DNA of 64,000 bases from Bacteroidota bacterium (GCA_039715085.1 JBDLIB010000001.1:691-64690); one strand, 5' to 3'; counted from the stretch's first letter, positions 1-26,052 are shown. The notes: generated by a model from the letters alone, not told the origin. A program made the numbers and translations.

Positions 1-1
1 A

Positions 2-334
2 GAAGATTTTAAATTAAAATGGAATGACAAGTACTCTTATGCTGTAGACTCATGGTACAAGAACTGGAATGAATTAACTGCATTTCTCGATTTTCCTGTT
101 CAAATTAGGCGGATTATTTACACAACAAACCTAATTGAAAACCTTAATGGAAAAATTAGAAAATACACTAAAAATAAGCTTTCATTCCCAACAGATGATG
201 CTGTGAAAAAATCAGTGTTTTTGGCTCTGGGTGAGGTGACTAAAAAATGGACTATGCCTATTAGAAATTGGGGAGTAATTTTAAACCAATTTATGACTAT
301 ATTTGAAAATAGGATTCAACCTATGAAAAATTGA
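2..334 (+). mobile_element. IS256-family (mutator-type) transposase, C-terminal ~110 aa; the gene runs off the left edge
   Basis: Frame-2 translation [59 protein letters not shown]... ends at TGA 332-334. The YTTNxIExxNxxxRK block is the conserved IS256 transposase C-terminus. Confidence 0.8.
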
Positions 335-390
335 TTTCTATGATTTTATGTTTACACACTTTACGGGATAGTGTCTGTTATATATAGTTT

Positions 391-1068
391 TTATTTCTTT
401 TTTTTCAATGGAGGCTTTCCAATTTCTTCAAGTTTCAAATTCAATTCTTCTCTTCTTCTTTCAAGTTTTAAAGGTTGTATGAATACAAAGTCAAATAACG
501 CTTCAATAACTTCAATTATCCACTCTGCTTCTCCTTTTTCTACTGCAACAATTTCTCCAGTATTAATGTTCTTTGTTGGATGAGCTGCCAAATTTCCAAT
601 ATTCCTTACAGCGTCTATAGCATCTGTCAAGTGTGATGGAACTCCGTCAAGTTCAATAAATGCCTGAATTTCTTGAGCAAGAGTCTTTTTTTTTATTTTA
701 AACTTGTCTCTTAAAAGACTTTGTAAAAGACGTCTACTTAATGCTGCGGAGGCTTTTGAACTAGCTGAAAGTACTTTAATTGCCTCTTCATAATCTTCTA
801 GATATATTTCAGGGATATCTTGTGAATTTTCGAAATTTGATTTTTTAGGATAAATTGTTTTTTCCCACTCAATGCGGTAAACACTATAATCATGTGTAAT
901 ATCATTATAGTCTAGGTCTCCATATTTTAGTATAACAACTAGTTTTGAACAATTTAAACAGTCCGAATATTGTAGTTGTTTTCCTTTTTTGTTTCCATTG
1001 CTATATTCAAATACTTTAGTTGTGTACCAGTCAAATTTCACGACTGTGGAACAATGTGGACAAATCAT
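391..1068 (-). CDS. Zn-ribbon plus DUF4145-like (HEPN-superfamily-like) protein
   Basis: N-terminal CPHC...CLNC zinc ribbon. The C-terminal block SAALSRRLLQSLL...IDAVRNIGNLAAHP is typical of DUF4145, a domain common next to restriction and abortive-infection genes. Confidence 0.55.
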   Translation of the reverse strand: MICPHCSTVVKFDWYTTKVFEYSNGNKKGKQLQYSDCLNCSKLVVILKYGDLDYNDITHDYSVYRIEWEKTIYPKKSNFENSQDIPEIYLEDYEEAIKVLSASSKASAALSRRLLQSLLRDKFKIKKKTLAQEIQAFIELDGVPSHLTDAIDAVRNIGNLAAHPTKNINTGEIVAVEKGEAEWIIEVIEALFDFVFIQPLKLERRREELNLKLEEIGKPPLKKKK

Positions 1069-1132
1069 AGAGTTTTTCTTTTTCAGTTAAATTATGAACG
1101 GTTTGGCTATGAGTAGTAGCGGTTTGAAACTA

Positions 1133-1570
1133 CTACGTTGTCTTATTTTCAGATACTTTCTTAGGAGCAATGACTTTATCTTTACCTCTATCCCCGCTAT
1201 TACTTATAGCTTTTATTAGCTGGCGTATTTCCTTATCTAAATCAGTTTCAATATTGGGTTCCTTAATATTTTTTCCTGACTCAATTTCCTTTGTTACGAC
1301 TTCTTTCACTTTCTTTGAAGTATTTTTTAAATTATACTCAGAGGCATTAAGGTCTTTGTATATCAAGCTTACTACGAGATACTTGTTTATAGTTTTATTC
1401 GTTCCATATTCTTCAATGTCTGCTGTAAGGATTGAAGTAGAATGATTTACATAAACATTGTTTTCTTCACTTAAGAAGTCATTAATTCTATCCTGTGTTT
1501 TTTTATCAAAATCAAATTTTGAATTTTCAGAAATTTTGATTTTAAATATTTCGAGCTTAGTTTGTGACAT
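1133..1570 (-). CDS. hypothetical protein, last gene of the OLD operon
   Basis: Open frame 1133..1594. The ATG at 1570 (MSQTKLEIF...) overlaps the OLD stop by 14 nt. No recognisable domain. The N-terminal half weakly resembles the 76-aa ORF at 3338..3568. Confidence 0.4.
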   Translation of the reverse strand: MSQTKLEIFKIKISENSKFDFDKKTQDRINDFLSEENNVYVNHSTSILTADIEEYGTNKTINKYLVVSLIYKDLNASEYNLKNTSKKVKEVVTKEIESGKNIKEPNIETDLDKEIRQLIKAISNSGDRGKDKVIAPKKVSENKTT

Positions 1571-3338
1571 GCTTTTCAATCTTTTTGTATGCAATAATAA
1601 TTTTATCTAATAATTTAAATGCACTTAATAATGCATGTTCTTTTTCCGAAGCTTCCATTTCATCAATAATATCCAAAACATTTCTAATAACGTCCTGCTT
1701 TGTAATACTATTTTCTTTTTTTCGTTCGTCACTTATAAATGAGAAGAAATGCTCTTCTAATACGTTAATTATTGGAAGTTTTATCGGTTCTTTGTATTCA
1801 AAGCTTGTGTAAGCATTGTCAAAAACACCAATGTCTTTAATTGAGTTGCAATAATCATTGAAAGCCTTAACATATATTTCCTGAGGGAACAAATCCTCAA
1901 ATGTTCGTTCTTCTTTGTCAGAGAAAACATCATTTATTTCGATTGAAGCCCATTTCTTGTTTTTAATAGCTTTTGTATATCCTTTTTTCTTCTTCTCCTT
2001 TATAGCTTCTTCATCACTATCAAAAATTGCAAGACCTGCTAAATCTAAATTATTATCACCTAAATAATTAAGTGTTTGTGAGATATTCGTTACTCCACCA
2101 GCATTGTATATATTTAACCATTCAAGCTTTTTATACTTTTCATTTTGAAAAAGTCTATGAAAAGCAAGTTTCTCAGTATTACCTTCCACAACAAGATTAA
2201 TATCACCTAACAAAAAACTATCATTTAATAGAATACCTAATTCCTTTCTTAAAACTTGATATTTATTCAAAAAAGGTTTGTGATTAATTTTTGTTCCATC
2301 TTTTGGCGATTTTGATACAAAAGTTAAAGCATCTACATTGTTTCTTATTGTTAAAAATGGATTGTGAGTTGTATATAATAGTTGTGAGTTTTCGGCAATT
2401 TCATTAAAAGAAATAAGCAAATCTTTTGAGCCATTTGGATGTAAGTTATTACCAGGTTCATCAAGCAATAGGATTGTCTTTCTATTTCCGTTTTTTGTCT
2501 TAGAGTATAATTTGTTTATTAGAAATGAAAAATAATATTTAAATCCAGGACTTCGTTCATCTATGGCAAAGCTTAGCTTTGTATTATCCCTTATAACCAA
2601 GCTCAACTTATTTCCTCTAATTGTCTGAATTCTTACATTGATGCTCTCATCTTGTTTATAGTGCTTTTTCAATATTTCATTAAATGTATCTTCTAACTTT
2701 GATAGGTAAGTAGAAATAAAATTATCATCATCTGTATCTAAGATAGATAAGTCATCGCAGCCTGAGATATATAATAGCCTCCTAAAGGTTTCATATTTCT
2801 TGTCATTGCTTAATAATTGTTCTACTGTAGCAGGTTCCAACAACAATTCTTCATTTTCAAAATACTCTATGTTCGGATAAATATTTTCATAAAAGTCATT
2901 CCAAAATGTAGCTTTATTTTCAACTTGCTCACTTAAATTTACCGAGTAACTCACTTTATCAGTTAGCACAAGAGACATGTTTGAAATCCCATTTCCCCAC
3001 CTTTTGAGTTGAATATATGAATTTTCAGAATTTTCAGGCAAGGCTTTTATTAAATCTATTTCATCTGATAATATTTCAATAAGCTTTGCATAAGACTCTT
3101 TTGAAACACTAAACAAACCAATCAGAACCGGAAGACCTTTGGGGTAAGATTTTGAGCTTTTATTTAAATTTTTATGAGATAGTTCATAATTTAAAAAATT
3201 CAGATGACTTATAGCCTGAATTATGCTAGATTTTCCGCATTCATTTTTACCAACAAAACAGAGTTGCCCTCCGTTTAAAATAATCTTTTCCTTCTTTACG
3301 GATTTAAAGTCATGTATTTCAGCTTCTAGTAATTTCAT
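1557..3338 (-). CDS. OLD-family ATP-dependent endonuclease (ABC-type ATPase plus TOPRIM)
   Basis: Walker A GKNECGKSS, Walker B LLLDEPGNNLHP, TOPRIM Glu in NLVVEGNTEKLAF and DxD in IFDSDEE. Length 593 aa. Confidence 0.8.
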   Translation of the reverse strand: MKLLEAEIHDFKSVKKEKIILNGGQLCFVGKNECGKSSIIQAISHLNFLNYELSHKNLNKSSKSYPKGLPVLIGLFSVSKESYAKLIEILSDEIDLIKALPENSENSYIQLKRWGNGISNMSLVLTDKVSYSVNLSEQVENKATFWNDFYENIYPNIEYFENEELLLEPATVEQLLSNDKKYETFRRLLYISGCDDLSILDTDDDNFISTYLSKLEDTFNEILKKHYKQDESINVRIQTIRGNKLSLVIRDNTKLSFAIDERSPGFKYYFSFLINKLYSKTKNGNRKTILLLDEPGNNLHPNGSKDLLISFNEIAENSQLLYTTHNPFLTIRNNVDALTFVSKSPKDGTKINHKPFLNKYQVLRKELGILLNDSFLLGDINLVVEGNTEKLAFHRLFQNEKYKKLEWLNIYNAGGVTNISQTLNYLGDNNLDLAGLAIFDSDEEAIKEKKKKGYTKAIKNKKWASIEINDVFSDKEERTFEDLFPQEIYVKAFNDYCNSIKDIGVFDNAYTSFEYKEPIKLPIINVLEEHFFSFISDERKKENSITKQDVIRNVLDIIDEMEASEKEHALLSAFKLLDKIIIAYKKIEKHVTN

Positions 3339-3568
3339 TATTTTTTCGGATAATAGGTTAATTGAATTACTACCATAACATTGTTAATATGGTTATTTGA
3401 AGGATTACCAGAAATAATCTTAATATCTTCACTATCTATCTTTCCTATTAAAGATTTATTTTCTGCAAGAAAATCATCTCTCTTTACCTTGGCATCATCA
3501 ACACAAGTTTTTAGACCAGCTGCATTAAAAGTACCATTAATACTTGTAAAATATTCTGTTTTTTTCAT
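3338..3568 (-). CDS. small hypothetical protein translationally coupled to the OLD gene
   Basis: Its TAA stop overlaps the OLD ATG by 1 nt (TAATG). 76 aa, no known domain. Confidence 0.4.
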   Translation of the reverse strand: MKKTEYFTSINGTFNAAGLKTCVDDAKVKRDDFLAENKSLIGKIDSEDIKIISGNPSNNHINNVMVVIQLTYYPKK

Positions 3569-3634
3569 TATATATCTTTTATTATTCGATTTTTATGTTT
3601 GCTCATATGTTCGTTAAGTTATGCCAGCTAACTT

Positions 3635-3857
3635 GTTTATATGCATAATCCTGTTGTTATTTACAACCATTATTTTGAGTCTGCAAACAGCAGGTTGGGT
3701 TATTTTTAATAAAGTATGGTATAATTGATTTATTTTATCAAATATCAACAATATAAATTATTTAAACGGCATCATTGATCACACTTTTATGTGTTATATG
3801 TTTATGTTGGCAATTTATAGCATATATTTTGAGTTGGGGTGGGGGTTATCCTTTATG
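3635..3857. repeat. junction element A, copy 1 (~225 bp)
   Basis: Direct repeat of 8908..9150, roughly 75-80% identical by eye. Includes an identical 31-mer TTGATTTATTTTATCAAATATCAACAATATA (3725-3755) and GTTGGCAAT (3806-3814). Lies 67 nt upstream of the minus-strand OLD operon. Confidence 0.85.
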
Positions 3858-4107
3858 TTTTGATGGGGAAATCTTACTTTTGATGGGCTAAGCCACTGTA
3901 AATTTTAACTTTTGTTATGTGCTAAATTGCTTTTATTCCATCTTCCAAAGTTTTTCTCTTGTTTCTTTGTCAATTGATGTTTTTTATGTGCCAACTTTTG
4001 GTTTATAATTGACCTTTATATTAATATTCTTTTGTTTAAGTACTAAAACCGCAATATTTCATAGGGCAAGTTGTTGTACAGCGTCTTTCTTTGTCTTGTT
4101 TTATAAA

Positions 4108-5199
4108 TTATTCCTTACTATCATTAATTTTAGGGTTTTCAGGTTTAAAATTACCTAGCTGACCTTTATAATTATCAATAAAAGAAAAGTCGGGGATTCT
4201 CGCCTTTGGAAATGTTAGAAATGATAAATCAGGGACTTTTACAGGTGGAGTAATATGTTTTATAGTCGGAAATGTAATATTGTCCAATGCAGGATTGATA
4301 ACAGTATTGAATATTTTTTCACTATTTGGAATTAGGTTATGATTTATTTTGGGAGGAGCAATAATCTTATCAAGCTGGCGATTAAATATAGAATTTTCGT
4401 TGGGCTCTAGTTCTAAACCATTAACTTTTTCCTTTAATTGTGAGATAATTTTCGTTTTTTCTTCTACCTGTTCCCTATTTCTTCTTTCAATTTCTGCTAA
4501 TTCTTTATTTAGAAACTGTACATAAGACCCCATTTCATCGGCACTTCCAGATAACCTGTTAAACATTACAAGAAATTGATTTAATAACCCATTATCAAGG
4601 TTGTTTGGATATCTTACTTTATGATCTATTTCACTCCATGCTTCCTCAAATATTGTTCTCACTTGAATTTCTGCTACATATTCAGTTTTATCTGGTTTAG
4701 TGGAAATAAGATAATGAACTGACCTGTATCCAAACTGATGCTCTTTGACATCGCAATCTAACTTTTCAAATCCTTCAATGTATTCAACAGGATCTCCTTT
4801 TCGATAATAGGCAGTTTGTTTTTCTTTAAGCACCCATTTGTTAATTATATATTCGTGAATAGGGAACCAATCTTCTTTAAATAGATGAAGAATTCTTATT
4901 CCTATTAAATCCGTGATTTCGGTTTTATAATTAGTAACATCAATAACCCTTTCTGGCGAATTGATTCTTTTCCTAATTATCTTAGTCACTAAATGATCGG
5001 GGTTTTTAATCCTATATCTAACAGAGTGAACTTTTTTAATGTTGAACAATGATTCAACTAGGTATCTAGCAGGCCCCTCCAGATCTTTTAGATGACTAAC
5101 ATAATCATCTCTAATTAGCATTAATTCCTCCCATGTTAATCCCGTAGAGGTGAATTGTTCTTCATCTATTTTGTATTCGGATAGAAATTCTTTTATCAT
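4108..5199 (-). CDS. RelA/SpoT-domain protein (small alarmone-synthetase / toxSAS-like) with a C-terminal extension
   Basis: Synthetase motifs DLIGIRILHLF, GYRSVHYLI and EIQVRTIFEEAWSEIDHKVRYP. No HD, TGS or ACT domains. The track start at 5208 is TTG; the first ATG is at 5199. Confidence 0.85.
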   Translation of the reverse strand: MIKEFLSEYKIDEEQFTSTGLTWEELMLIRDDYVSHLKDLEGPARYLVESLFNIKKVHSVRYRIKNPDHLVTKIIRKRINSPERVIDVTNYKTEITDLIGIRILHLFKEDWFPIHEYIINKWVLKEKQTAYYRKGDPVEYIEGFEKLDCDVKEHQFGYRSVHYLISTKPDKTEYVAEIQVRTIFEEAWSEIDHKVRYPNNLDNGLLNQFLVMFNRLSGSADEMGSYVQFLNKELAEIERRNREQVEEKTKIISQLKEKVNGLELEPNENSIFNRQLDKIIAPPKINHNLIPNSEKIFNTVINPALDNITFPTIKHITPPVKVPDLSFLTFPKARIPDFSFIDNYKGQLGNFKPENPKINDSKE

Positions 5200-5404
5200 T
5201 GTCTTCAAATTTTATTAATAGTTGCTACAAAATCATTTTATGAGGTACTGTTTTTATACTGCCCAACGTTGAATATAAGAATAGTAGACGACAGTGTGGC
5301 ACTTTTACTATCAAGTTAAAAAAGTTGAAGTTGGCTACAATCCTTTAATTTACTACTATTCTGGCTAGTGCTTTTCATAGGACACATTGTTACCATTTGT
5401 TATT

Positions 5405-7969
5405 TTATAATATTCTAAATATTTCGTCATATTCAAGTGTGTCATTTCTAAACTCTGACAGAATTAAATTTTTATTTACACTTTTTAATTTTCCATCTTC
5501 TATGTTAAGAGCTAGCCTACATTTACGATAAATTGCTAATGAAGTATGTCTTGATAGGCCGATGTTTTGAAGTGCAATAGCTATTCTATTTTGAGTGCCA
5601 TATTCAAGTAATGAAGCCCAATTTTCTCCCGCTAAATCCTCTCCTAAAATATTTGCAATTACTTGATAGTAATGGTTGAAATATTTTTCAAAAAGAAAAC
5701 GTAAAACGTACTCTATATTATCAATTATGTTTTCTATGACAATATTGATATGCTTTTTATTGCCTTTTTCGAAAGGAGCATATTCGTTAAAGTCTACTAA
5801 AATTTGGATATTATTGTTCTCATGATATTCAATTGATTGCTTTATAATTTGACTTAGACTTATGCCATTTATCCATTGGTTCATAAGGAGAGCATAATAT
5901 GAAAAACTATTTCTGTTTTTCAGTTTCTTTTCTGCATTTTCCCATTCATATATATTGAACATAGTTTCCAATACATCTAGGCAAGTATTATAATTTATTG
6001 ATGAGCTATTTGGTAATGTTATGCTTTTTCCTTCTTTATGTTGTTTTGATAATTCTAAAAATACTTTGTTTTGAATTTTAAGATTTATGGATTGGTTTGA
6101 GTTCAATATGTAGGAAGGAATTGTAAAGTCCTTTACCTTACTTTTCGCAAGTTCAATAATCTTTTCCTTTTTTTTCTCTATTAACTTTTCGATTAAAGGG
6201 CTTTTGTAATTTGATTCTATTTCTAATGTATCGACACTTATGATATTTGCAATATATCTTAAAATTGCTTTTTCTTCCTCCGTTCCTGAAATGTCTTGCT
6301 CGTTCAGTAATTTTTCGATTCGTTGTAAGTTCCTATCGACTTTAGTTATAACTGTTGGTGTTAATGTGATCTCTGATTTATTTAATACTTCTTTATTGTC
6401 CCAAACACAGTTTTCGTGTTGGATGCAAAAAATATTTCCATATAGCTCTCTTGATAAACGACCTGCTCTACCCGATAAATTCCAAAAATCAATTGGAAGT
6501 AATTTTTTTAAACCGTTTTTATTATTTAAAATAAAGATGTTCTGAGTTGGCATATTAACACCCTCCAGCAGTGTAGAAGTACAAAAAACATTTCTTATTT
6601 CTTCATTTTTATATAAATCTTCAACAAGATTTCTAATTAATTGAGGAAGTTTTCCATAATGAAAAGCAACTTTATGCTCTAATAAATTAGCCAAATAGTA
6701 ATCTGGATGTATGTAATCTTTAATTTGTTTTATTGCTTTTCTCAAAGTTTCATTCACTTCAATCCCTGTAACCGTTTTTGAGAATTCATTAGCTTCATAA
6801 ATGGTCTTAGACTTACTATTACAGTAAATTAAATTGTTTTTATTTTTACCTAAATGTTGAATAAGTGTAGTTGTAGAATTTGCTACTTGAAATAAATGTG
6901 AATTTTCAATTGTTACAATATTATCTCCTTGTATTAATTCAATATTTTGACTTAATAAATCAATAAAGAACAAATTTTGGGAAACAGGAGATTCGTTTGT
7001 TTTGAATGTACTATTGGGTTTGTTCCTATCAAATAACTTTAGAAAAACCTCTGGATTGGATACGTTTGGTGAGGAAAAATACAGCTTTATATTACCATAT
7101 CTTTTTATAGTTTTTTCTATTGCAGTATATGTTGTTACACTTCTCGAATCCTTTTCATTGGCTAATTTGTGGGCTTCATCTAGAAAGACAAACCCAATTG
7201 GTGGATTATTTTCTTGGGATAAATAACTAATAAGTCTTTCGGGTGTTAAAACTAAAATATAGTTATGAGGTTGTTCGCCAATGAAATCATTAACATTTGA
7301 ATTTGTTAAAATACGATACTTGTATTGTTCTGATAATTCTCTGATTTCATCTTTTAAATCAAGTGTGAATTGGTTTATCAAAGCCCTAGTTGGAACCAAT
7401 ATGACCAAGTTTTCTGGAGGGCTATTTCTCATAACTTTTTTTATAAAAGCTTTAATAATAAATGATTTACCCATTGATGTTGGACCAGAAAAACTATATT
7501 CAAGTGTATTGCTTAATTGAGTGTATAACTCAAATTGTGAATCTGTGAAAACGGAACCACTAGAATCGGGAACTTTTTGAATGATTTTTTTTGCTTCAAC
7601 TTCTAGACTTCTAAAAAGAGGTAAAGTTGCAAAATTTTCGTTGTAATTAATTAAATAATTAATAGCGGGAAAATTCCCCAATTTTGAATAGATAGCTTTT
7701 GAAAAGGTTCTATAAATTTCATCATTCTGATATTGATGGTTTAGATATGTTATTATTTGATATGCTTTGTTCCTTGCTTCCGAACTTTTTGAATTGGATA
7801 AGATATCAGAGAATCTTAAAGCATCTTTAAACTCTTTATCTGTCAAAATAATTTCTGATAGTTCAGTTTTGAGGTTATACCCCGCTGATATTAAAGAACA
7901 TTTATTGAATATTAAATTAAAATATTCATTATGCAATACATCCGTTGTTAACTTTTCTATTATAGTCAT
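5405..7969 (-). CDS. hamB: Hachiman HamB, SF2 DExH helicase
   Basis: Motif I GPTSMGKSF, motif II FLDEAHKL, 854 aa. Lies immediately downstream (8-nt gap) of a DUF1837-like gene. Confidence 0.8.
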   Translation of the reverse strand: MTIIEKLTTDVLHNEYFNLIFNKCSLISAGYNLKTELSEIILTDKEFKDALRFSDILSNSKSSEARNKAYQIITYLNHQYQNDEIYRTFSKAIYSKLGNFPAINYLINYNENFATLPLFRSLEVEAKKIIQKVPDSSGSVFTDSQFELYTQLSNTLEYSFSGPTSMGKSFIIKAFIKKVMRNSPPENLVILVPTRALINQFTLDLKDEIRELSEQYKYRILTNSNVNDFIGEQPHNYILVLTPERLISYLSQENNPPIGFVFLDEAHKLANEKDSRSVTTYTAIEKTIKRYGNIKLYFSSPNVSNPEVFLKLFDRNKPNSTFKTNESPVSQNLFFIDLLSQNIELIQGDNIVTIENSHLFQVANSTTTLIQHLGKNKNNLIYCNSKSKTIYEANEFSKTVTGIEVNETLRKAIKQIKDYIHPDYYLANLLEHKVAFHYGKLPQLIRNLVEDLYKNEEIRNVFCTSTLLEGVNMPTQNIFILNNKNGLKKLLPIDFWNLSGRAGRLSRELYGNIFCIQHENCVWDNKEVLNKSEITLTPTVITKVDRNLQRIEKLLNEQDISGTEEEKAILRYIANIISVDTLEIESNYKSPLIEKLIEKKKEKIIELAKSKVKDFTIPSYILNSNQSINLKIQNKVFLELSKQHKEGKSITLPNSSSINYNTCLDVLETMFNIYEWENAEKKLKNRNSFSYYALLMNQWINGISLSQIIKQSIEYHENNNIQILVDFNEYAPFEKGNKKHINIVIENIIDNIEYVLRFLFEKYFNHYYQVIANILGEDLAGENWASLLEYGTQNRIAIALQNIGLSRHTSLAIYRKCRLALNIEDGKLKSVNKNLILSEFRNDTLEYDEIFRIL

Positions 7970-7976
7970 ATATTAT

Positions 7977-8864
7977 TTAAGTTAACTCTTGAATAATTTC
8001 TTTCCTCTTCTCTGCTAAATTTGAAAAAGGAATAATATAGATATGGAAATTATAACCTGTAAATTCTGACTTGTTGATTTGGAAATTTATTGAATCAACC
8101 ATGCTCTCAACTTCCTCTTTAATTTTCTGTCTAATATGAGTTCTAAATTCACTATTCGATTTATTACTTTCTTCTTCACTTATTTCAACATCATAGCCGA
8201 GAAAGATGCCAAAAGAATAATCTGTATTTATTTCACTTTCTCTAGCATTTGGTATAATTACTTTTTTTAGAAATTTATATAATTCAGGATTAGCTGTTTC
8301 CTTAATTAATTGACTATTGATTAAACTAATTTCAAATTCAATTTTATTTTCACTTAATAGCTTTGATAGAGAACCAAATGCCTCATATATACCTGTTTGT
8401 AAGCTTGAATTTAGTTTTGATTCTCCAAATATTAATTGATAATCGGTTTCTGATATTTTCAATAAGTGTACTCCATCTGCTCCTTTTACATAATCATTTT
8501 TTGCTGTTTTAATTTCTAGTTTTGTTAGGATTTTTGGAGCATTTAAGTGTGACTCTAAAAAGCAGTAAAGCAAAATTTCACCTAACTCTCCTTCATTTGA
8601 AGAGTATCTTCTAAGCTTATCTTGTGCTTTAGATACTAATGTTGCATATTCCTGTGCACCAATTAGTTGTTGAACCTCTGTTCTAGATAATGCAAAATGA
8701 TAGAGTTGATTTGATAAGAGTTTTACAAGTTCATCATAAGCAAATGCATTATTTTTCACTTTTAAAATAAAGACATTAACCTTATTTGCCTTGGCTAATT
8801 CTAAATTTTCTATATCGTTATAAAATAAATCTAAAAAAGTTTTTTTTACGTTAGTTTCTATCAT
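7977..8864 (-). CDS. hamA: Hachiman HamA (DUF1837-like, PD-(D/E)xK-type)
   Basis: GELGEILLYCFLESHL...GADGVHLL...LIFGESKL pattern, 295 aa, paired with the helicase. Confidence 0.75.
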   Translation of the reverse strand: MIETNVKKTFLDLFYNDIENLELAKANKVNVFILKVKNNAFAYDELVKLLSNQLYHFALSRTEVQQLIGAQEYATLVSKAQDKLRRYSSNEGELGEILLYCFLESHLNAPKILTKLEIKTAKNDYVKGADGVHLLKISETDYQLIFGESKLNSSLQTGIYEAFGSLSKLLSENKIEFEISLINSQLIKETANPELYKFLKKVIIPNARESEINTDYSFGIFLGYDVEISEEESNKSNSEFRTHIRQKIKEEVESMVDSINFQINKSEFTGYNFHIYIIPFSNLAEKRKEIIQELT

Positions 8865-8907
8865 AAACTGTGAGGGGTCTTTAGGTTTTTTTAAAGAATG
8901 GTGACTC

Positions 8908-9150
8908 GTTTATATGCGTAATACTGTTGTTGTTTACAGCGATTATAAATCTGTAAACAAGCAGTTTGGGTTATTTAATTAAGGTAGGGTAGAGTTGATT
9001 TATTTTATCAAATATCAACAATATATCTTATATAATTGGCAACATATATCACTTTTTTGTTTGATACGTGTTTATGTTGGCAATGTATAGTATATGTTTT
9101 AGTTTGAGGTGAGGGTTATCCCTATAAAAAGTAAGGGATATCCTTTATTT
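8908..9150. repeat. junction element A, copy 2
   Basis: Homologous to 3635..3857. Same 31-mer at 8995-9025 and GTTGGCAAT at 9076-9084. Ends in the hairpin TATCCCT(9117-9123)/AGGGATA(9134-9140) followed by a T-rich run. Lies 44 nt upstream of hamA. Confidence 0.85.
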
Positions 9151-9260
9151 GGTGTTAGTACGTTTAGCTACTTTTGGAGGGAAATGCAAATTGCAAGTAA
9201 CTTGATTAATTTAAAAAGAAAAAGAAAGAACATATGACTTTGTTTTGGCATCTATTTCGT

Positions 9261-9390
9261 TCAATTTACACCAGACTAGACGCATTTTTAGGAAATTTTA
9301 AATGTTTTCTCTTTTTGGAATTGCAAACGAATAAAATTCCTATTTTTAACATAAAATAGACGGGGTTATTACACGAACTCCCGTTGGCAG
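9261..9390 (+). repeat. junction element B, copy 1 (~130 bp), ends GTTGGCAG
   Basis: Direct repeat of 11133..11264, roughly 85% identical by eye. Terminal hairpin ACGGGG-N13-TCCCGT runs into GTTGGCAG (9383-9390), 30 nt before the ATG at 9420. Confidence 0.85.
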
Positions 9391-9419
9391 CAACCGAAAA
9401 TACATAAAGATAAAATACA

Positions 9420-11102
9420 ATGACAAGAGTTTGGTTAAGTGAAATTCAATTTAGTGATGATAGTAAAATTGAAATAAACAAAAATGACATTGTTGTTCTT
9501 GTTGGCCCCAATAATGCGGGAAAGAGTGCAACCTTAAAAGAGGCTGCTAGTTTTTTACGAGCCAAAAACAGTAGTGGAAAAGTATTAAAAGATATTTCTA
9601 TTCAAAAAAGTGGTAATAAAGATGAACTCATTTCGTTTTTAGGAAATTTTGCACAGAAAAAATTCTCAGGAAGTCCAAAACCTTCATATGAAGGTTTTGG
9701 ATTTAATATTTATGAATCCAATGCAGAATCTTATTGGAATAGAACTGAAAATGGATTATCTGAACTTGCCAATATTTTTGTAAATACATTATCTACAGAG
9801 CAAAGATTATCTGCGGCAAATCCACCTCAAAGCATTAAAATAACATCTCAAGCTCCTCAACATCCTATTCATTTTTTACAAAAAAATGACAGCTTAGAAA
9901 AAAAGTTCAGTGAATACTTTAAGCAAGCTTTTGGAAGTGACTTGATTGTCCATCGAAATGCAGGAAATGAAGTGCCTTTATATGTTGGAGAAAAACCAAT
10001 TCCAAAAGCTGGGGAAGATAGAGTTTCTGAAGGATATTTAAATGAATTGGAAAAACTTGATTTACTTCATCAGCAAGGTGATGGAATGAGAAGTTTTGTT
10101 GGTGTTTTGTTAAACACATTTATTTCAAATCATTCTATTTTATTTATAGATGAGCCAGAAGCTTTTTTACACCCACCGCAAGCTAGATTGCTTGGAAAAA
10201 TGCTCGCAAAAGACCTACCAACAGAAAGGCAACTATTCTTGGCTACACATAGTGAAGATTTTTTAAAAGGTTTATTAGACACAAACCTTGCAAATCTTAA
10301 AATTATAAGAATTCAAAGAAATGAAGCCGTTAATAAAGTAAGTGTTTTAGATAGTGATGATATAAATGAAATATGGTCAGATTCACTTTTAAGACATTCA
10401 AATATACTAAGTGGCTTATTTCATTCTAAAGTAGTCATTTGTGAAAGTGACTCGGATTGCAGATTTTTTTCAGCTATTCTGTCTGCTCAATATGAAGAAG
10501 TTGGAGAAATTTCACCTGACATACTATTTATTCATTGTGGCGGAAAGCACAGAATCCCAACAGCAATTAAAGCTTTGAAAAAGTTAGAAGTTCCATTAAC
10601 TGTTGTTTCAGATTTTGACGTCTTAAATGATATTAATCCAATAAAACTCATTGTGGAAGACTTAGGAGGTGATTGGTCTGGTATTGAAGACGATTGGAAG
10701 CAAGTAAAAAAAGCAATTGAACAAAAAAGACCTGAATTTCTAACTTCAGATTTAAAAATAGAATTAGAAGATATATTAAGCTCTACAACTAATAGAATTT
10801 TTCCAAAAGCAAAAATATCAGAAATAAAAAGAGCTTTAAAAAAAGCTTCTGCTTGGACAGAAGCAAAAGAATTAGGAAAAGCATATATACCAAGCGGAAA
10901 TGCTACACAAGCTTTTGAACGAATACAAGTGAAATTTAAGGAAATAGGTTTTTTTATTCTTGAAGTTGGTGAATTAGAGTGCTTTGTCAAAAGTATTGGA
11001 AATCACGGACCAAAATGGGTAAGTGAAGTACTTGCAAAAAACTTAAAAACTGATCTAGAATTAGAAATAGCAAGAAAATTTGTTAAAGAATTTACAGCAT
11101 AA
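9420..11102 (+). CDS. fused ABC-type ATPase plus TOPRIM/DUF4435-like protein (OLD-family / PARIS AriA-AriB-like fusion)
   Basis: Walker A GPNNAGKSA, Walker B ILFIDEPEAFLHPPQ, TOPRIM-like VVICESDSDCRFF and VVSDFDVLND. Confidence 0.7.
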   Translation: MTRVWLSEIQFSDDSKIEINKNDIVVLVGPNNAGKSATLKEAASFLRAKNSSGKVLKDISIQKSGNKDELISFLGNFAQKKFSGSPKPSYEGFGFNIYESNAESYWNRTENGLSELANIFVNTLSTEQRLSAANPPQSIKITSQAPQHPIHFLQKNDSLEKKFSEYFKQAFGSDLIVHRNAGNEVPLYVGEKPIPKAGEDRVSEGYLNELEKLDLLHQQGDGMRSFVGVLLNTFISNHSILFIDEPEAFLHPPQARLLGKMLAKDLPTERQLFLATHSEDFLKGLLDTNLANLKIIRIQRNEAVNKVSVLDSDDINEIWSDSLLRHSNILSGLFHSKVVICESDSDCRFFSAILSAQYEEVGEISPDILFIHCGGKHRIPTAIKALKKLEVPLTVVSDFDVLNDINPIKLIVEDLGGDWSGIEDDWKQVKKAIEQKRPEFLTSDLKIELEDILSSTTNRIFPKAKISEIKRALKKASAWTEAKELGKAYIPSGNATQAFERIQVKFKEIGFFILEVGELECFVKSIGNHGPKWVSEVLAKNLKTDLELEIARKFVKEFTA

Positions 11103-11116
11103 ATAAAATAAGGAAG

Positions 11117-11264
11117 CTGCCAACAATATAGGTCAATTTACACCAAACCAGAAACATTTTTAGGCAATTTTAAATGTTTTCTCTTTTTAGATTATCAGAC
11201 TAATAAAATTCCTATTTTTAACATAAAATATACGGGGTTATTACACGAACCCCCGTTGTATGCA
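11117..11264 (+). repeat. junction element B, copy 2, from CTGCCAAC to GTTGTATGCA
   Basis: CTGCCAAC (11117-11124) is the reverse complement of GTTGGCAG at 9383-9390. It is followed by the conserved body, then the hairpin ACGGGG-N13-CCCCGT and GTTGTATGCA (11255-11264). Confidence 0.85.
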
Positions 11265-11435
11265 ATCCCCCTTCGATGAATATTTTAGATAACGTCGGGG
11301 AAAACCAAAAAAAGAGTTAAAAATAAGAAATAATAAAAATTCATAAACAATTGAAAACCAATGACTAATATTGATGTTGGTTGGAATGCTGAGAACGATA
11401 ATCACGATAATTTAAAAATATAAAAGTTAGAAATA

Positions 11436-12647
11436 ATGAAACCAAGAATTGCTCTTTTTGGATTACCTCCATTAAGCTCAGGAGAAATTAAAATATGGGC
11501 TTTTGCAAATCCTTCAGGAGGTAGTGCGGGCGATGAAATCTTCCAATCGGCTAATAACGAGGGTGGTAAAATATTAGACTTTGCTCATACTGACGTGGAA
11601 TTGGGCTGTACAATTACAATTCGGATTATGTCATCTGGCATATGTGAATACTCACACGAAATAATATATAATGGAGCTGACATCAGCCATGTTCCGAACT
11701 TTCGCAAGGAAACAAATACAACCGAAAAAGATGTTTCAAAAGATTGGGACATAAATTTATGGAAAAGTTGGAATCCACAAAAAGAACATCATGATGGATT
11801 AGAAGATGAGAAAAAATTTATCATGTTAAAAATTATATCTGTAGCTCCATTATGGGAATCATACTATGCGGATAGTAACATTGATTATTTAGAAAAATTT
11901 CATAAACTATGGATAGGTCTAAATTCTTTTGCGTCTCAATATTCAACTGAAACAGGAGACAAGAATAAAATTCTTGCACTAGTACAGTCTGATTTGCGTC
12001 AAGAATTTAATATGAAAATTAGCTCATTGACTAACCAAAAATCAGCAGATAAATGGAGAGAATTACAACGTGGAACTGGTCTTAATATGACCTCAGAAAT
12101 TGTACGTGATGAAATTAACACAACGTGTTCTAGCTTCGATTTTCTCGAATTAGCTAAGACAGCAACTGGACTATTCTCGGATATTTCAAAAGAACTTGAT
12201 GGATTGATTTTCTTAGATAAAAATATAGGTAAGGACGTTTTTCGTGATATTTTTTCTAGATATCATCAATATATGGCATCTGCTGAAGGAATTGTTCATC
12301 CTTTTATCCTTTCAGAAGCTTTTGCAAATCCAAGAGCTCCAGAATCTATAGTAAGAATTGGAAGACTAGTTTTTCATAATCCATATCTTTCATCTGATCC
12401 TGGAAACCTATTTAATTTAGGTGATTATTTTGGATCTGATTATTCTGCTGACACTTACCTAGGTCAAAGCATTCAAAAATTGAAAGATTGGGAGATCATC
12501 GATCCACTTTTTTTTAAATACCTGCTTGTCTTGTACAAGTTTCGTTGTGCATATTTTCATGGAGATTTGCCACCAAATAGGCAGAATAATGAATTGGCAA
12601 AGTCCGCTTATCAAAGTTTATATGAGATTTTTCCAGCTATACTTTGA
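11436..12647 (+). CDS. HEPN-motif protein (possible ApeA/Abi-like RNase)
   Basis: C-terminal helical region with Rx4H in YKFRCAYFHGDLPPN. The beta-rich N-terminal domain is unassigned. 403 aa. Confidence 0.45.
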   Translation: MKPRIALFGLPPLSSGEIKIWAFANPSGGSAGDEIFQSANNEGGKILDFAHTDVELGCTITIRIMSSGICEYSHEIIYNGADISHVPNFRKETNTTEKDVSKDWDINLWKSWNPQKEHHDGLEDEKKFIMLKIISVAPLWESYYADSNIDYLEKFHKLWIGLNSFASQYSTETGDKNKILALVQSDLRQEFNMKISSLTNQKSADKWRELQRGTGLNMTSEIVRDEINTTCSSFDFLELAKTATGLFSDISKELDGLIFLDKNIGKDVFRDIFSRYHQYMASAEGIVHPFILSEAFANPRAPESIVRIGRLVFHNPYLSSDPGNLFNLGDYFGSDYSADTYLGQSIQKLKDWEIIDPLFFKYLLVLYKFRCAYFHGDLPPNRQNNELAKSAYQSLYEIFPAIL

Positions 12648-12665
12648 TAAAGTAATCAAAGGCAC

Positions 12666-12768
12666 TGCATACAACAAAGAACTGAGGCAAAAACCAAATT
12701 TAATTTGGATAATTTTTGCATATAATTTTCATGGTAATACAGGTATTTTACGAAGGAGAGGTTAGTAT
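12666..12768 (+). repeat. degenerate third copy of junction element B
   Basis: Starts with TGCATACAAC (reverse complement of 11255-11264). Ends ACAGGTATTTTACGAAGGAGAGGTTAGTAT, which resembles ACGGGGTTATTACACGAACCCCCGTTG. Confidence 0.45.
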
Positions 12769-12842
12769 ATAGTTTTTTATAAGCAATATTGAAAGAGAGG
12801 TAATTAATATATTAAATTGAATTAGTTTGAAGAATCATACCA

Positions 12843-13664
12843 TCATTTAGATAATGTAATTCCTAAGTCCCTCTCCCCTCCATCTTCATTCAACTCCACA
12901 AAAACATTCTTCTCCTTTCCAACAGAAAACTTCGGTAAAACAATCACAAATTCAGACTTAGAATTTGCTCTTATTCTTTCAGGAAATTGATGTTTGTAAA
13001 GTGGTTTTATCTGGAGCATTTGAGAAGATTTTTTTGTTAAACTCGATTTGTTTTCAGTGAAAAATCGAAGGTAATTTACATCATAATCAATCTTGGATTT
13101 GTTATGAATTTCAACTAAATAATATAATGTATTTTTATGATAAGCTATATCCTTAATGACTAACCTGATCTGGTATTTTTGTTTGGATTTATTTAGATTT
13201 CTTCGTGAATTTTTTAGAAATGAAGCACAGTTTTTAGCATATTGATCTTTAGCCTTTACTATTGTCTTCTTAATTGTGTTTGGGTGTTTTTGAAATGCTT
13301 GTACCTTCTTCTCTTTGGGAATTTCATTTCCGATACTCTCTTCTATTTTGATAAAATAATTGAGTTTTGGAAGTGTCTTTGAATACTTTAAAATATAGGA
13401 ATATACCTGTCCGTCATTGGTGATTGTTAACAGGTTACTTTTCAATCCCGGTGTTGCTTGTAATAATCCAAAATATTGCTCTTTTTCTTTATTATGTGTA
13501 AATACAAAATTGGATCTTCCAACAATTCCCTGGCGAATTGGTTTCGGAAAGAACAGGGATACTGTTTTATTATTATTAGCATAGATCGTATCTAATGATC
13601 TGGTATTTTGTGCTTGTGTTATTGCTGTTATTAATAGTAGTATAATGCTTGTTGATATTTTCAT
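12843..13664 (-). CDS. traN: conjugative transposon protein TraN-like (DUF4138-like), secreted
   Basis: Signal peptide ending TQAQ. Size and position after TraM fit a CTnDOT-type gene order. Confidence 0.7.
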   Translation of the reverse strand: MKISTSIILLLITAITQAQNTRSLDTIYANNNKTVSLFFPKPIRQGIVGRSNFVFTHNKEKEQYFGLLQATPGLKSNLLTITNDGQVYSYILKYSKTLPKLNYFIKIEESIGNEIPKEKKVQAFQKHPNTIKKTIVKAKDQYAKNCASFLKNSRRNLNKSKQKYQIRLVIKDIAYHKNTLYYLVEIHNKSKIDYDVNYLRFFTENKSSLTKKSSQMLQIKPLYKHQFPERIRANSKSEFVIVLPKFSVGKEKNVFVELNEDGGERDLGITLSK

Positions 13665-20929: not shown

Positions 20930-21529
20930 ATGAATCGAATTAAAGAAATATTAGAGCTTAGAGGGGTAAAACAAACTTGGTTAGCTGAAAAGCTAAACAA
21001 GAGTTATAACATGGTAAATTCGTATGTTCAAAACCGAAGACAACCAAGCATTGAAATTCTTTACGAAATCGCAGTTTTATTACAAGTTGAAGTAAGAGAA
21101 TTACTAGATACTAATCAATCAATAATTAAAGAAAATAATACTAACGATACTGTAGAAATTCCATTAATTGGCTCTGTTTCTTGTGGACTACCAATTTTTG
21201 CAGAAGAAAATATTGAAGCTAAAATACCTGTATCAACAAAATTAATTAGAAAATCTAGTGATTACTTTCTTTTAAGAGCTTCTGGAGATTCAATGGATAA
21301 AAAAGGTATCAATAGTGGAAATTTACTTTTGATAAAACAACAGAATGTTGCTGAAAATGGAGATATAGTACTTGCACTAATAGATGATGATGCAACTGTA
21401 AAAGAGTTTATAAATAATACAGATACTATTGTTCTAAAACCCCATTCTACTAATCCAAAACATCAACCAATAATACTTACTTCCGACTTTAGAATTCAAG
21501 GTATTATTAAAACCGTAATAAAATTATAA
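20930..21529 (+). CDS. XRE-family HTH fused to an S24 (LexA/CI-like) self-cleaving peptidase domain
   Basis: N-terminal HTH (KQTWLAEKLNKSYNMVNSYVQNRRQPS). C-terminal LRASGDSMDKKGINSGNLLLIK...DIVLALIDDDATVKEF, giving an S24 Ser/Lys dyad context. Confidence 0.8.
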   Translation: MNRIKEILELRGVKQTWLAEKLNKSYNMVNSYVQNRRQPSIEILYEIAVLLQVEVRELLDTNQSIIKENNTNDTVEIPLIGSVSCGLPIFAEENIEAKIPVSTKLIRKSSDYFLLRASGDSMDKKGINSGNLLLIKQQNVAENGDIVLALIDDDATVKEFINNTDTIVLKPHSTNPKHQPIILTSDFRIQGIIKTVIKL

Positions 21530-21540
21530 ATTTAATATAA

Positions 21541-22551
21541 ATGGCTACAAATAAAAACGAACATCTTCAAAAAGTACTTGATACCCACGATATAAACAAA
21601 GTAGAAAATCTGGATAAGTTTATTGCAAAGAAAAATGCGGTAAAGAATGCTTTAAATGACAAATTTTCTGACACCAAGGCATCTAACTCTATAGATTCTG
21701 GATCATATGCAAAGCATACAGCTATAAATACAAAGTTTGATATAGATTGTTGTATTCCTTTTAAAAAGAAAGAGGAAGAAGAAGATAAAGGTTATAGTAA
21801 TCTTAAGGATATGTTTGAAGACGTATATAAGTATTTAAAAAATGAATATACAGAGAATGACGATGAAATATCAAAAGATGATGTTAGAAAACAGAAAGTA
21901 TCTGTCGGTATGAAATTTAATATTGATGGAGAAGAATTTGATATGGATGTAGTTCCTGGACGAGAAAGACCCCATAACAATAATTATAAAACTAATAACA
22001 CAGATTTAAGTTTATATATTCACCCTCCGAATCGTTCAAAAAAAGAGGTTGATGATAATAAAACTCGAATTAAAACAAATATTAAGAAACACGTTGATTT
22101 GTTAGGTGGTTCAGAAAGAACTCACGAACGTAAAATATCCAAACTGCTTAAGGTTTGGAAAACAGAAAGAAAGAATCAAAATGGCGGTAAATTGATAAAG
22201 TCTTTTATGATGGAATTATATACTAAAGAATCTTTTGATCAAGCAATTGAAATACCAAATGGGTTATGGGAAAAAGTGAAAATGGTAATGAATCATATTA
22301 TTGATAACATAACCGAAAATGATTTAGTAGACCCTGTCAATTCTAGCAATATAGTGTCAGATTCAATGAGTGATACTGCTAAATCTGACACTAAACGTGA
22401 TATGAAAAAGACAATAAAAGAGGTAGATGAAGATTCTGATAAGATAAAAGAATATTTCCCTATAAATGAAGATTATGATAATGATGAAGATGATGATTCA
22501 AGTTCTAAAGCATCTTCAGTATCAATTTTAAGCACAAGTAAGTTTGGATAA
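21541..22551 (+). CDS. CD-NTase (cGAS/DncV-like nucleotidyltransferase, SMODS-type) with an acidic tail ending in Gly
   Basis: GSYAKHTAINTKFDIDCCI (GS...DxD) and third acidic residue in FDMDVVPG. OAS-like helix LLKVWK...KSFMMELY. C-terminus ...DDDSSSKASSVSILSTSKFG. Confidence 0.8.
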   Translation: MATNKNEHLQKVLDTHDINKVENLDKFIAKKNAVKNALNDKFSDTKASNSIDSGSYAKHTAINTKFDIDCCIPFKKKEEEEDKGYSNLKDMFEDVYKYLKNEYTENDDEISKDDVRKQKVSVGMKFNIDGEEFDMDVVPGRERPHNNNYKTNNTDLSLYIHPPNRSKKEVDDNKTRIKTNIKKHVDLLGGSERTHERKISKLLKVWKTERKNQNGGKLIKSFMMELYTKESFDQAIEIPNGLWEKVKMVMNHIIDNITENDLVDPVNSSNIVSDSMSDTAKSDTKRDMKKTIKEVDEDSDKIKEYFPINEDYDNDEDDDSSSKASSVSILSTSKFG

Positions 22552-25514: not shown

Positions 25515-26050
25515 TGGAAAATAATTATTGGATATTTGGGTATGGTTCTATTATTTGGGATAATAATGACATTAAGCCTGTTAAATCAATTGATTCAAAG
25601 CTAGTTGGAGCACATAGAAGTTTCAATAAGAAATCTACTTTGAATAGAGGAACTAAAAAGTTTCCTGGCTTGGCTTTAGGACTCGAATATGGTGGAGAAT
25701 GTCATGGAAAAGCATTTCTTATTAACCAAGAATCCTTTGAAGTGCTTAAAAAGAGGGAAGGAGGTTACAAAGAAATTAAGACTCCTAATAGAGATATTGA
25801 AATTTTAGATTCCCAAGGAAATATAATTGAAGATTGTATTGTTTTTTTTCCAAATTCTACAGGTAAAAATTATCTCCCTCCAAACACTAGTTTAAAAGAA
25901 AAAGCAAATATTATAATAGTTGGAAAAGAAGGCACAAAGAGTAATGCTAAAGATTATTTGAAACAAATCAAAAATTTCCTAAATGAATATGGAATTGAAG
26001 ATAATGAGGTTGAGGGTTTATATAAACTAGTATTTAAAAATATTTTGTAA
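25511..26050 (+). CDS. ChaC-like gamma-glutamylcyclotransferase family protein
   Basis: WIFGYGSIIW, HRSFNKKSTLNRGT, PGLALGLEYGGECHGKAF, LKKREGGY. This is the ChaC/GGCT signature order. Confidence 0.75.
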   Translation: MMENNYWIFGYGSIIWDNNDIKPVKSIDSKLVGAHRSFNKKSTLNRGTKKFPGLALGLEYGGECHGKAFLINQESFEVLKKREGGYKEIKTPNRDIEILDSQGNIIEDCIVFFPNSTGKNYLPPNTSLKEKANIIIVGKEGTKSNAKDYLKQIKNFLNEYGIEDNEVEGLYKLVFKNIL

Positions 26051-26052
26051 AG

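Follow-up and report, generated by a model that had tools for sequence, protein, structure and literature searches.

The subject of this analysis is a 64,000-nucleotide (nt) stretch from a Bacteroidota bacterium (GCA_039715085.1 JBDLIB010000001.1:691-64690), referred to here as the window, and in particular two candidate defense genes in open reading frames (ORFs) ORF1 and ORF2, each of which follows a copy of a repeated junction element (B1 and B2). We propose, with a probability of about three in four, that positions 9246-12675 are the plus-strand arm of a ~12-kb island (377-12675) that is built from integron-type cassettes and lies beside traN of an integrative and conjugative element (ICE). 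Integron-like cassettes had been suggested by an earlier reading of this DNA made without database searches (the sequence-only reading). That suggestion is now supported by homologous cassettes that keep their boxes, by canonical arrays outside the window, and by the pairing of own boxes at 79 of 90 positions.

In the proposed mechanism, a cassette would consist of an ORF or small operon between a 5' box of the form GTTxxxxxx and a reverse-complementary 3' box, xxxxxxAAC. While the cassette is a free circle, its two boxes would form the R' and R'' arms of a single recombination site, at which a tyrosine recombinase would cross over at G|TT. Because the crossover is at G|TT, insertion would make the TT-proximal arm the leading end of the cassette and the AAC arm its trailing end. 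ORF1 and ORF2 would be two independent single-gene cassettes, and B1 and B2 would occupy the position of attC, between ...CAAC and GTTG..., having lost the classical R-L bulged hairpin. For cassette 1, the expected circle junction is GCTGCCAAC-B-G|TTGGCAGC, and the expected deletion junction is B1-G|TTGTATGCA. The recombinase presumably acts in trans at G|TT and could be an integrase of the ICE or island, or an IntI encoded elsewhere in the genome.

Gene-Specific Boxes in the Window

Cassette 1 contains ORF1 (560 amino acids (aa); 9420-11102, plus strand), which encodes an ABC-type ATPase joined to an OLD-like TOPRIM domain. Its 5' box, an R'-type core at 9383-9391 with the sequence GTTGGCAGC, is the exact reverse complement (9/9) of its 3' box, an R''-type inverse core at 11116-11124 with the sequence GCTGCCAAC. 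The sequence-only reading had given this pair as GTTGGCAG (9383-9390) and CTGCCAAC (11117-11124); both are exact, and the match extends to 9 nt. Cassette 2 contains ORF2 (403 aa; 11436-12647, plus strand), and its boxes, GTTGTATGCA (11255-11264) and TGCATACAAC (12666-12675), are exact reverse complements over 10 of 10 positions, as described earlier. The 3' boxes begin 13 and 18 nt past the respective stop codons (15-20 nt in the sequence-only reading); the reverse complementarity reported earlier is exact.

When the ORFs of the window are ranked by complementarity between their 5' and 3' flanks, ORF1 and ORF2 come first and joint second among 52. For a fixed start, the chance of such matches is ~40 × 4^-9 and 40 × 4^-10. 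Unconstrained inverted pairs of GTT-9-mers in this AT-rich window number 79, versus 70 expected. Because such pairs occur at chance level, they are unusable as a detector, and the significance of the boxes lies in their register: they start at the terminal GTT of the repeat and end just past the stop codon. B2 is bounded by an inverse core, ...AAC, and a core, GTT... (GCTGCCAAC ... GTTGTATGCA), and the same delimitation is seen on the minus strand at sites 5397-5259, 4081-3987, and 1224-1091.

The Same Cassettes in Other Arrays

Homologues of ORF1 were compared at loci L023/L025, L013, L012, and L084, and a homologue of ORF2 was examined at locus L029. The ORF1 homologues, at 77-87% aa identity, keep the same boxes. 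Those of L023/L025 (5' GTTGGCAGCAACC, 3' GGCAGCTGCCAAC) are identical to the boxes in the window, those of L013 (5' GTTGGTAGC, 3' GCTACCAAC) carry a compensatory C>T/G>A change, and those of L012 (5' GTTGGTGGT, 3' GCTGCCAAC) show three uncompensated differences, all of which are G.T wobbles. The 5' box of L084 is GTTGGCAGT; on its 3' side, the contig ends 30 nt past the stop codon. Alignment of these loci, a check that the sequence-only reading had recommended, shows homology that spans GTTGG to CCAAC and gives way to unrelated sequence outside the boxes. The ORF2 homologue in L029 (69% identity) is flanked by exactly GTTGTATGCA and TGCATACAAC. Both cassettes are therefore found in arrays or contexts other than that of the window. 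A local inverted duplication, which had been named earlier as another source of the complementarity, is rejected because the complementarity is conserved across genomes.

In total, 42 homologues of ORF2 were found. In four longer contexts, the gene stands alone, lacking ORF1, B, and boxes, in toxin-antitoxin or defense neighborhoods and in a satellite-like element. Because each gene occurs elsewhere without the other, ORF1 and ORF2 are independent units rather than a two-gene system, as had been predicted for the ATPase/TOPRIM and HEPN-motif genes.

The arrays of L013, L023, L012, and L086 consist of genes on one strand, 150-190 nt apart. Their spacers (110-180 nt), which run from ...CAAC to GTTG..., take the fold R''(7-11 bp)-(1-3 nt)-L''...L'-(4-6 nt)-R', in which some bases are bulged and the tip varies. 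The own-box rule holds in thirteen further cassettes, with pairs such as GTTGTAAAAC/GTTTTACAAC, GTTAGCAAAC/GTTTGCTAAC, GTTGGGCAC/GTGCCCAAC, and GTTAGCATAC/GTATGCTAAC. In a set of 15 distinct cassettes, 79 of 90 bases in positions 4-9 of own boxes pair, versus 2.4 of 6 for non-own boxes (permutation p <= 1e-5). Two negative controls gave no boxes: distant prophage Old genes in viral contigs, by profile scan, and ORF2 homologues in other phyla. Single-protein scans of the viral contigs found nothing. Two candidate lines of evidence were discarded: L013-L022 as a polymorphism, because they are one locus from ten samples, and L025 as a circular cassette, because it represents a unitig with repeated sites at its ends.

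Many canonical sites of L012, L013, and L086 share the tip motif GTGCTTAACCGAAA / TTAAnCCGAAAA, which points to one Flavobacteriia attC family. In L014, a Flavo-1 RNA (248-336, minus strand; RF01705, 60.8 bits) and a terminator immediately precede the first cassette of the L013-type array; no integrase is adjacent, and a response-regulator gene follows.

Junction Elements B1 and B2

The element that the sequence-only reading described as ~135 bp long, present twice in direct orientation, and ~85% identical was recovered by a repeat finder and by reading of the sequence as a 148-nt direct repeat of 85% identity (B1, 9246-9393; B2, 11118-11265), almost identical over its 3' 70 nt. A scan for the hairpin motif and the preceding AT-rich block found only these two copies in the 64-kb window. 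The junction elements proper, both on the plus strand and in attC position, span 9246-9382 and 11125-11254. The hairpin ACGGGG-N13-CCCCGT, reported earlier for each copy, is exact in B2 (11232-11256); in B1 (9360-9384), the 3' arm reads TCCCGT, which gives one G.T pair. Both hairpins run into GTTG, the GTT of which would be the crossover triplet. A third, degenerate copy, proposed at 12666-12768, did not hold up: this segment shows no alignment to B1 or B2 beyond AT-rich background, no attC-like fold, and no profile match, and the 3' box TGCATACAAC is the only real part there. The distal end of the array (12676-12842, plus strand) abuts the traN stop codon.

The left end of B matches the family pattern, CAAC-AAT followed by a stem, which in B1 comprises 11 bp (TTCGTTCAATT/AATTG-CA-AACGAA). 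The right end, GACGGGGTTATTACACGAACTCCC|GTTG, is similar to the L'-spacer-R' portion of canonical sites, exemplified by GACGGTTATACGAGACC|GTTG in L086 and TTTTAATACACAACAAC|GTTG in L023. The L'-like TTATTACAC of B has no complementary partner beside R''; instead, it makes up the loop of a local G4/C4 hairpin directly adjoining the box helix. In both copies, the L-type stem starts 3 nt past R'', and because 38-52 nt, including the hairpin, separate this stem from R', B falls outside the structural definition of attC. B1 and B2 nevertheless appear to derive from attC, to judge from their two ends.

B may also act as a promoter or 5' leader. A TTG-N17-TATTTTTA motif lies just upstream of the B1 hairpin, with the Bacteroidota-type -7 motif ~10 nt before the hairpin, and TACCTTTT is found at the equivalent place in a Cryomorphaceae copy. 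Scans for sigma-70 promoters and terminators are uninformative here, the host being a member of the Bacteroidota. The RNA fold of B is unexceptional (z = -1.0 and -2.0), an Rfam scan of the region and related loci gave no family for B, and blastn of B against plasmids and phages gave no match.

Other Copies of the B Hairpin

The sequence-only reading had called for a search for further copies of the element. An exact scan of genome and metagenome collections with the 19-nt hairpin core found it elsewhere in one organism only, a marine Cryomorphaceae metagenome-assembled genome (MAG; CAXBKQ01) and its source TARA contigs; a viral match to the 19-mer was judged to be chance. The Cryomorphaceae copies always lie at contig ends, where part of the element is readable, and this position implies a multi-copy repeat. 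One of them (L010) precedes a cassette whose boxes are perfectly complementary over 10 nt: GTTGTAAGCA, a multicopper oxidase gene, and TGCTTACAAC 4 nt past the stop codon. Another is followed by GTGGGCA, a gene of no assigned family, and then GCCCAT. A remnant of a group II intron (domains V/VI; L001 1024-1106, minus strand) abuts this GCCCAT box in reverse orientation; it matches RF00029 with 35.8 bits, just under the gathering score. Group IIC introns that target attC have been described in the same arrangement.

The four copies of the B hairpin lose similarity exactly at CGT|T. The 19-nt core, including the loop, is 100% identical in the two genomes, and the preceding 25 nt are only ~55% identical; that the core has stayed the same while the upstream sequence has diverged suggests constraint on the hairpin. 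From these breaks, we infer past activity of B as a recombination site. After the oxidase cassette and past an insertion sequence (IS), 31 nt are identical to the start of the L086 canonical sites. Because this cassette has its own canonical site and a B-type element upstream, B-type and canonical sites seem to work side by side. The IS, which encodes a DUF772/DDE_Tnp_1 transposase, is present in two unrelated cassettes from different samples (L010 1790-3525; L029 1480-3147). In both, it lies 7-10 nt past the CAAC of R'' (CAACAAyrGTAACyGwTGCACAA...), which suggests that it targets cassette recombination sites site-specifically.

Probable Cassettes on the Minus Strand

The rest of the island (377-9250, minus strand), overlooked in the sequence-only reading, is, to judge from its boxes and sites, also built from cassettes. 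Sites were called attC-like by reading of their folds and with nhmmer profile hidden Markov models (HMMs) built from sites outside the window. These profiles match the minus strand of the window at 1097-1219 (E = 3e-4) and at 5262-5391 (E = 0.02), and both matches lie between defense genes.

A two-gene Hachiman cassette spans 5389-8905, with HamA at 8864-7977 and HamB at 7969-5405; its boxes, 5' GTCACCATT (8905-8897) and 3' AATGGTAAC (5397-5389), are complementary at 8 of 9 positions. HamA (DUF1837) is matched at 9e-117 in PADLOC, and HamB carries DEAD, ResIII, and Helicase_C domains. The adjoining attC-like site of canonical type (5259-5397; R'' AATGGTAAC, L'' GAATAGTAG, L' CTACTATTC, R' GTTGGGCAG), to which the E-value of 0.02 belongs, has just an L-like 9-bp inverted repeat, ~27 nt from R''. 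It leads into a RelA/SpoT-domain cassette (4073-5267; ORF 5208-4108) with the boxes 5' GTTGGGCAG and 3' CTGTACAAC, complementary at 7 of 9 positions. A short attC-like site (3987-4081; R'' CTGTACAAC ... AAGGTCAATTATAAACCAAAA | R' GTTGGCACA) comes next, and an ORF-less segment on the same strand has the 5' box GTTGGCACA and the 3' box ATTGCCAAC.

An apparent three-gene cassette spans 1215-3632, and its boxes (5' GTTAGCTGGC, 3' GCCAGCTAAT) are complementary at 9 of 10 positions. It comprises a small ORF of 76 aa (3568-3338), the stop codon of which overlaps the start codon of the next gene (TAATG); a second OLD-family ATPase/TOPRIM gene (3338-1557; 593 aa); and a 145-aa ORF (1569-1133) that overlaps the stop of the OLD-like gene. 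The site at 1091-1224 (L'' GCTATAAGTAATAGCGG, L' CCGCTACTACTCATAGC, AAACC, R' GTTCATAAT; E = 3e-4) has the fold of a canonical attC and extends into the 3' end of the 145-aa ORF; like the site at 5259-5397, it is homologous to sites of Flavobacteriaceae arrays. The last cassette, with a DUF4145 gene (377-1099; ORF 1068-391), has boxes of weak complementarity (GTTCATAAT/TATATAAC).

A second repeat family, the leader junction elements, also lies on the minus strand. Copy 1 (8897-9121), upstream of Hachiman, ends in GCATATAAACGA|GTCACCATT, and copy 2 (3623-3851) ends in GCATATAAACAA|GTTAGCTGGC; the repeats (3631-3851 vs 8904-9121) are 77-86% identical. Copy 2 sits 5' of the operon of the small ORF and OLD-like gene and copy 1 sits 5' of the Hachiman operon, and they end with GCATATAAAC(G/A)A|GT where the cassette 5' box begins. 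The leader elements show no attC-like fold. The two divergent blocks of cassettes meet at ~8900-9250.

A Recombinase Linked to Related Arrays

A 405-aa tyrosine recombinase (Arm-DNA-bind_5, SAM_5, Phage_integrase) is encoded in L023/L024 and in L086/L087, in divergent orientation ~190 nt from the first site, with GGTACAAC direct repeats in between. It was rejected as an IntI: it reaches 38 bits on TIGR02249, where the cut-off is 265, and its best PDB match is XerD. Related integrases in L096, L097, and L099 have no array upstream, which makes the link between recombinase and array facultative. The enzyme is part of a mobile island and may serve as an island integrase with ...CAAC|A sites as its target.

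Upstream of this Flavobacteriaceae recombinase, GGTACAAC-N4-GGTAYAAC direct repeats and GTGCAAT-N-GGTGCA motifs are conserved (L023 3652-3850; L086 5670-6000; upstream of the integrase in L096, L097, and L099). Many metagenome contigs break 130-260 nt upstream of the 405-aa recombinase gene.

Evidence against the Integron Reading and Alternative Explanations

Several observations weigh against an array of integron-type cassettes. B1 and B2 are not imperfect palindromes of the attC kind: their fold lacks the R-L bulged hairpin that IntI recognizes, consistent with the earlier remark that the element is not a canonical attC palindrome, and profile HMMs of 15 outside canonical sites match neither copy. 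A pairwise alignment of B1 to an L023-type site is collinear with z = 4.9, as one of 30 comparisons; it is a lead for homology that is only suggestive. The left end of B1, TTTGGCATC, is a degenerate R''-like box with ATC in place of AAC, and neither alignment nor fold reveals a site after the 3' box of ORF2. Neither a circular junction nor a presence/absence polymorphism of the ORF1 and ORF2 cassettes was observed. The 64-kb window has no IntI or other tyrosine recombinase, in line with the sequence-only reading, there being no Phage_integrase match among its ORFs and no tblastn remnant; no serine recombinase is found among the ORFs either, and intI and attI do not adjoin the array. Given the lack of a tyrosine recombinase in the window, this is at best an array of the CALIN kind (attC sites clustered with no integron integrase).

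A further difficulty concerns the cores. The ATPase ORF keeps both boxes, but each of four arrays, among them those of the window, L023, and L013, has a core of its own between the boxes. In the standard integron model, a cassette carries its own attC along. Array-specific cores conflict with this model, and extra assumptions are therefore needed: the cores may have evolved in concert, crossovers may occur at both boxes, or cassette frames may be reused.

Known parasites of attC at the cassette sites, namely the group II intron remnant and the IS after CAAC, count in favor of integron-type cassettes. Integrons are known from Bacteroidota (PMC8618304), CALINs are common (PMC4889954), and defense systems are frequent as integron cassettes (bioRxiv 10.1101/2024.07.02.601686). 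The claim is less exotic because Bacteroidota integrons and defense cassettes have already been described.

The alternative that survives best, and that we regard as a serious if somewhat unlikely possibility, is that these genes were once integron cassettes and are now a frozen relic. B1 and B2 would then be dead attC sites remodeled into portable promoter/5'-leader modules, each with a -33/-7 Bacteroidota promoter and a 5'-terminal stabilizing hairpin, that drive genes in an array lacking a common cassette promoter (Pc). The missing L-box pairing and profile match of B, the TTG-N17-TATTTTTA and TACCTTTT motifs, and the lack of a recombinase in the window all fit this explanation. So do the degenerate ends of the plus-strand arm (ATC in the left box of B1; no site past ORF2) and the second non-canonical repeat (3631-3851 / 8904-9121), which likewise stands 5' of two operons. 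However, four different cassettes in two genomes follow a copy of the hairpin module, and similarity ends exactly at the crossover GTT, which requires several recombinations at B-type sites. Conservation of the hairpin core above an upstream sequence of ~55% identity is at least as well explained by a site recognized by a protein as by constraint on a promoter, and the sigma-70 scan, uninformative for Bacteroidota, does not help the promoter case.

It is more doubtful, though worth stating in view of the array-specific cores, that the module from box to box (GTTxxxxxx-ORF-xxxxxxAAC) is the unit of exchange in marine Bacteroidota and that the system resembles an integron only superficially. Such exchange would account both for the constant ATPase boxes with array-specific cores in four arrays and for the presence of unrelated genes in identical frames of box plus flank (5' GTTGTGCGTCAGCTAAAAAA, 3' AAGCCGAACGCACAAC), a Bro-N/BstA-like gene in L012 (1960-2770) and glyoxalase and DUF1801 genes in L086 (~890-1760, reverse complement). 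Crossovers at both boxes would be made by a tyrosine recombinase other than IntI, for which the 405-aa Arm-binding Flavobacteriaceae integrase with its GGTACAAC repeats and the ICE integrase would be candidates, and the B-type element would be a dedicated acceptor site, distinct from attC, that carries a promoter.

We consider it unlikely that the boxes are primarily an RNA device that pairs the 5' and 3' untranslated regions of each mRNA for stability, processing, or control of translation, the likeness to integrons being secondary. Coaxial stacking of the box helix with the hairpin would suit such a device, as would the three uncompensated differences in L012, all of which are G.T(U) wobbles, and the conservation of the boxes with the ORF and not with the site core. 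Yet 15 cassettes with unrelated genes share the box logic, palindromes of the canonical attC type directly flank the boxes, and the invariant AAC/GTT is the integron crossover core. The insertions of a group II intron and an IS are typical of attC, and B as an RNA has neither a remarkable fold (z = -1.0, -2.0) nor an Rfam family.

Invertible switches, in which a recombinase would use the short inverted repeats to flip the ORF relative to a promoter in B and so make defense phase-variable, are highly improbable. Bacteroidota are rich in invertons, 9-10 bp inverted repeats flank each ORF, and a promoter-like motif lies outside them. However, all six cassettes of the ATPase family and both of the ORF2 family share the orientation of the ORF relative to site polarity, and an independent assembly of the source sample (SRR27843388) shows the same orientation; moreover, the repeats are gene-specific past GTTG, and the window has no invertase. 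Chance or local inverted duplication, although unconstrained GTT-9-mer inverted pairs do occur at chance frequency in this AT-rich window, deserves practically no credence in light of the recurrence of the exact register in other genomes, the compensatory change in L013, and the permutation result (p <= 1e-5 over 15 cassettes).

Relation to Known Systems

With integron cassette arrays and CALINs, the island shares same-strand ORFs between sites that begin ...AAC and end GTT..., first cassette bases that complement the cassette's own inverse core, site cores that are homogeneous within an array, and cassettes common to several arrays. Some sites overlap the 3' end of an ORF, and an integrase is absent nearby, as in those arrays. 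It differs from them in that B1, B2, and the two leader elements lack the R-L bulged hairpin, in that it is cargo of a Bacteroidota ICE beside traN and is arranged in two divergent blocks, and in that several cassettes hold more than one gene (Hachiman; the small ORF, OLD-like, and 145-aa genes). The defense cassettes of sedentary chromosomal integrons in Vibrio (bioRxiv 10.1101/2024.07.02.601686) are likewise compact antiphage genes that occur singly with their own expression signals, whereas the present cassettes belong to another phylum, have no IntI/attI platform, ride on a conjugative element, and form a much smaller array.

The B elements resemble Vibrio cholerae repeats in length (~125-135 nt), identity (85-90%), location between cassettes, and ends (...AAC-AA to ...GTT). 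Those repeats are one long imperfect palindrome, whereas B is a three-way arrangement with a conserved 25-nt hairpin that abuts the crossover point. In the pdif/Xer modules of Acinetobacter plasmids, genes also lie between inverted recombinase sites with no dedicated integrase in cis, but pdif sites are conserved 28-mers (11-6-11), whereas the boxes here are gene-specific complements lacking the 11-6-11 architecture.

If integron-type cassettes are the correct explanation, this is a dense defense island of a Bacteroidota ICE that was assembled cassette by cassette. Its cassettes include Hachiman, two OLD-type nucleases, a RelA/SpoT-domain gene, a DUF4145 gene, and an Rx4H protein of no assigned function. 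The idea of integron cassettes as defense libraries would thereby extend beyond Vibrio chromosomes and include conjugative elements in marine Flavobacteriia. Own-box complementarity would serve as a simple sequence rule to delimit single defense units, and it nominates ORF2 as a candidate stand-alone defense gene. The findings also bear on the origin of cassettes and attC, in that R boxes travel with the ORF, the core is array-specific, and identical frames carry different cargo. The B-type site, a variant that lacks the L-box hairpin and appears to have recombined several times, offers a test case for what a cassette recombinase needs.

Encoded Proteins and Surrounding Genes

The earlier description of ORF1 as an ATPase/TOPRIM protein is borne out by its AAA_21, AAA_15, and OLD-like_TOPRIM domains, and its best PADLOC match is Old (1.8e-24). 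With an N-terminal ABC-type ATPase, a C-terminal TOPRIM domain, and its occurrence as a solitary gene in 6 contexts, ORF1 is a class-1 OLD-like nuclease and a candidate single-gene defense. Its family is very large and highly conserved.

ORF2 had been assigned a HEPN motif. The R370-x4-H375 residues behind this assignment are invariant in 32 sequences, but family and fold searches did not confirm it: ORF2 has no match in Pfam, PADLOC, NCBIfam, or PHROGs. In the AlphaFold2 model (predicted local distance difference test score, pLDDT, 89.6), an N-terminal beta-sandwich is joined to a helical domain, and a search of PDB and BFVD with this model left the helical domain unmatched.

As stated in the sequence-only reading, the array sits directly beside traN of an ICE, and the host belongs to the Bacteroidota, the source being a marine Bacteroidota MAG (locus-tag prefix ABFR05_). 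The traN gene (DUF4138; 12843-13664, minus strand) is the first gene of the transfer operon and marks the point of cargo insertion; TraM adjoins TraN, and the transfer genes continue downstream of the array through traG. The ICE is CTnDOT-like and carries RteC at 29774-30598. On the left, the island is closed by a partial transposase (1-330, plus strand) that is IS256-like by translation. At 20930-27126 (plus strand), a regulator with S24-peptidase and helix-turn-helix domains is followed by an operon resembling a cyclic oligonucleotide-based antiphage signaling system (CBASS), with SMODS, a ThiF and JAB fusion, DUF6602, a ChaC-like gene, and a second SMODS. Further defense-type cargo of the ICE comprises a small nSTAND3-like ATPase (27472-28128, minus strand), a patatin-like phospholipase (33506-35152, plus strand), and a protein of the signal transduction ATPases with numerous domains (STAND) class with Mrr-nuclease, NB-ARC, and TPR domains (40947-43736, plus strand).

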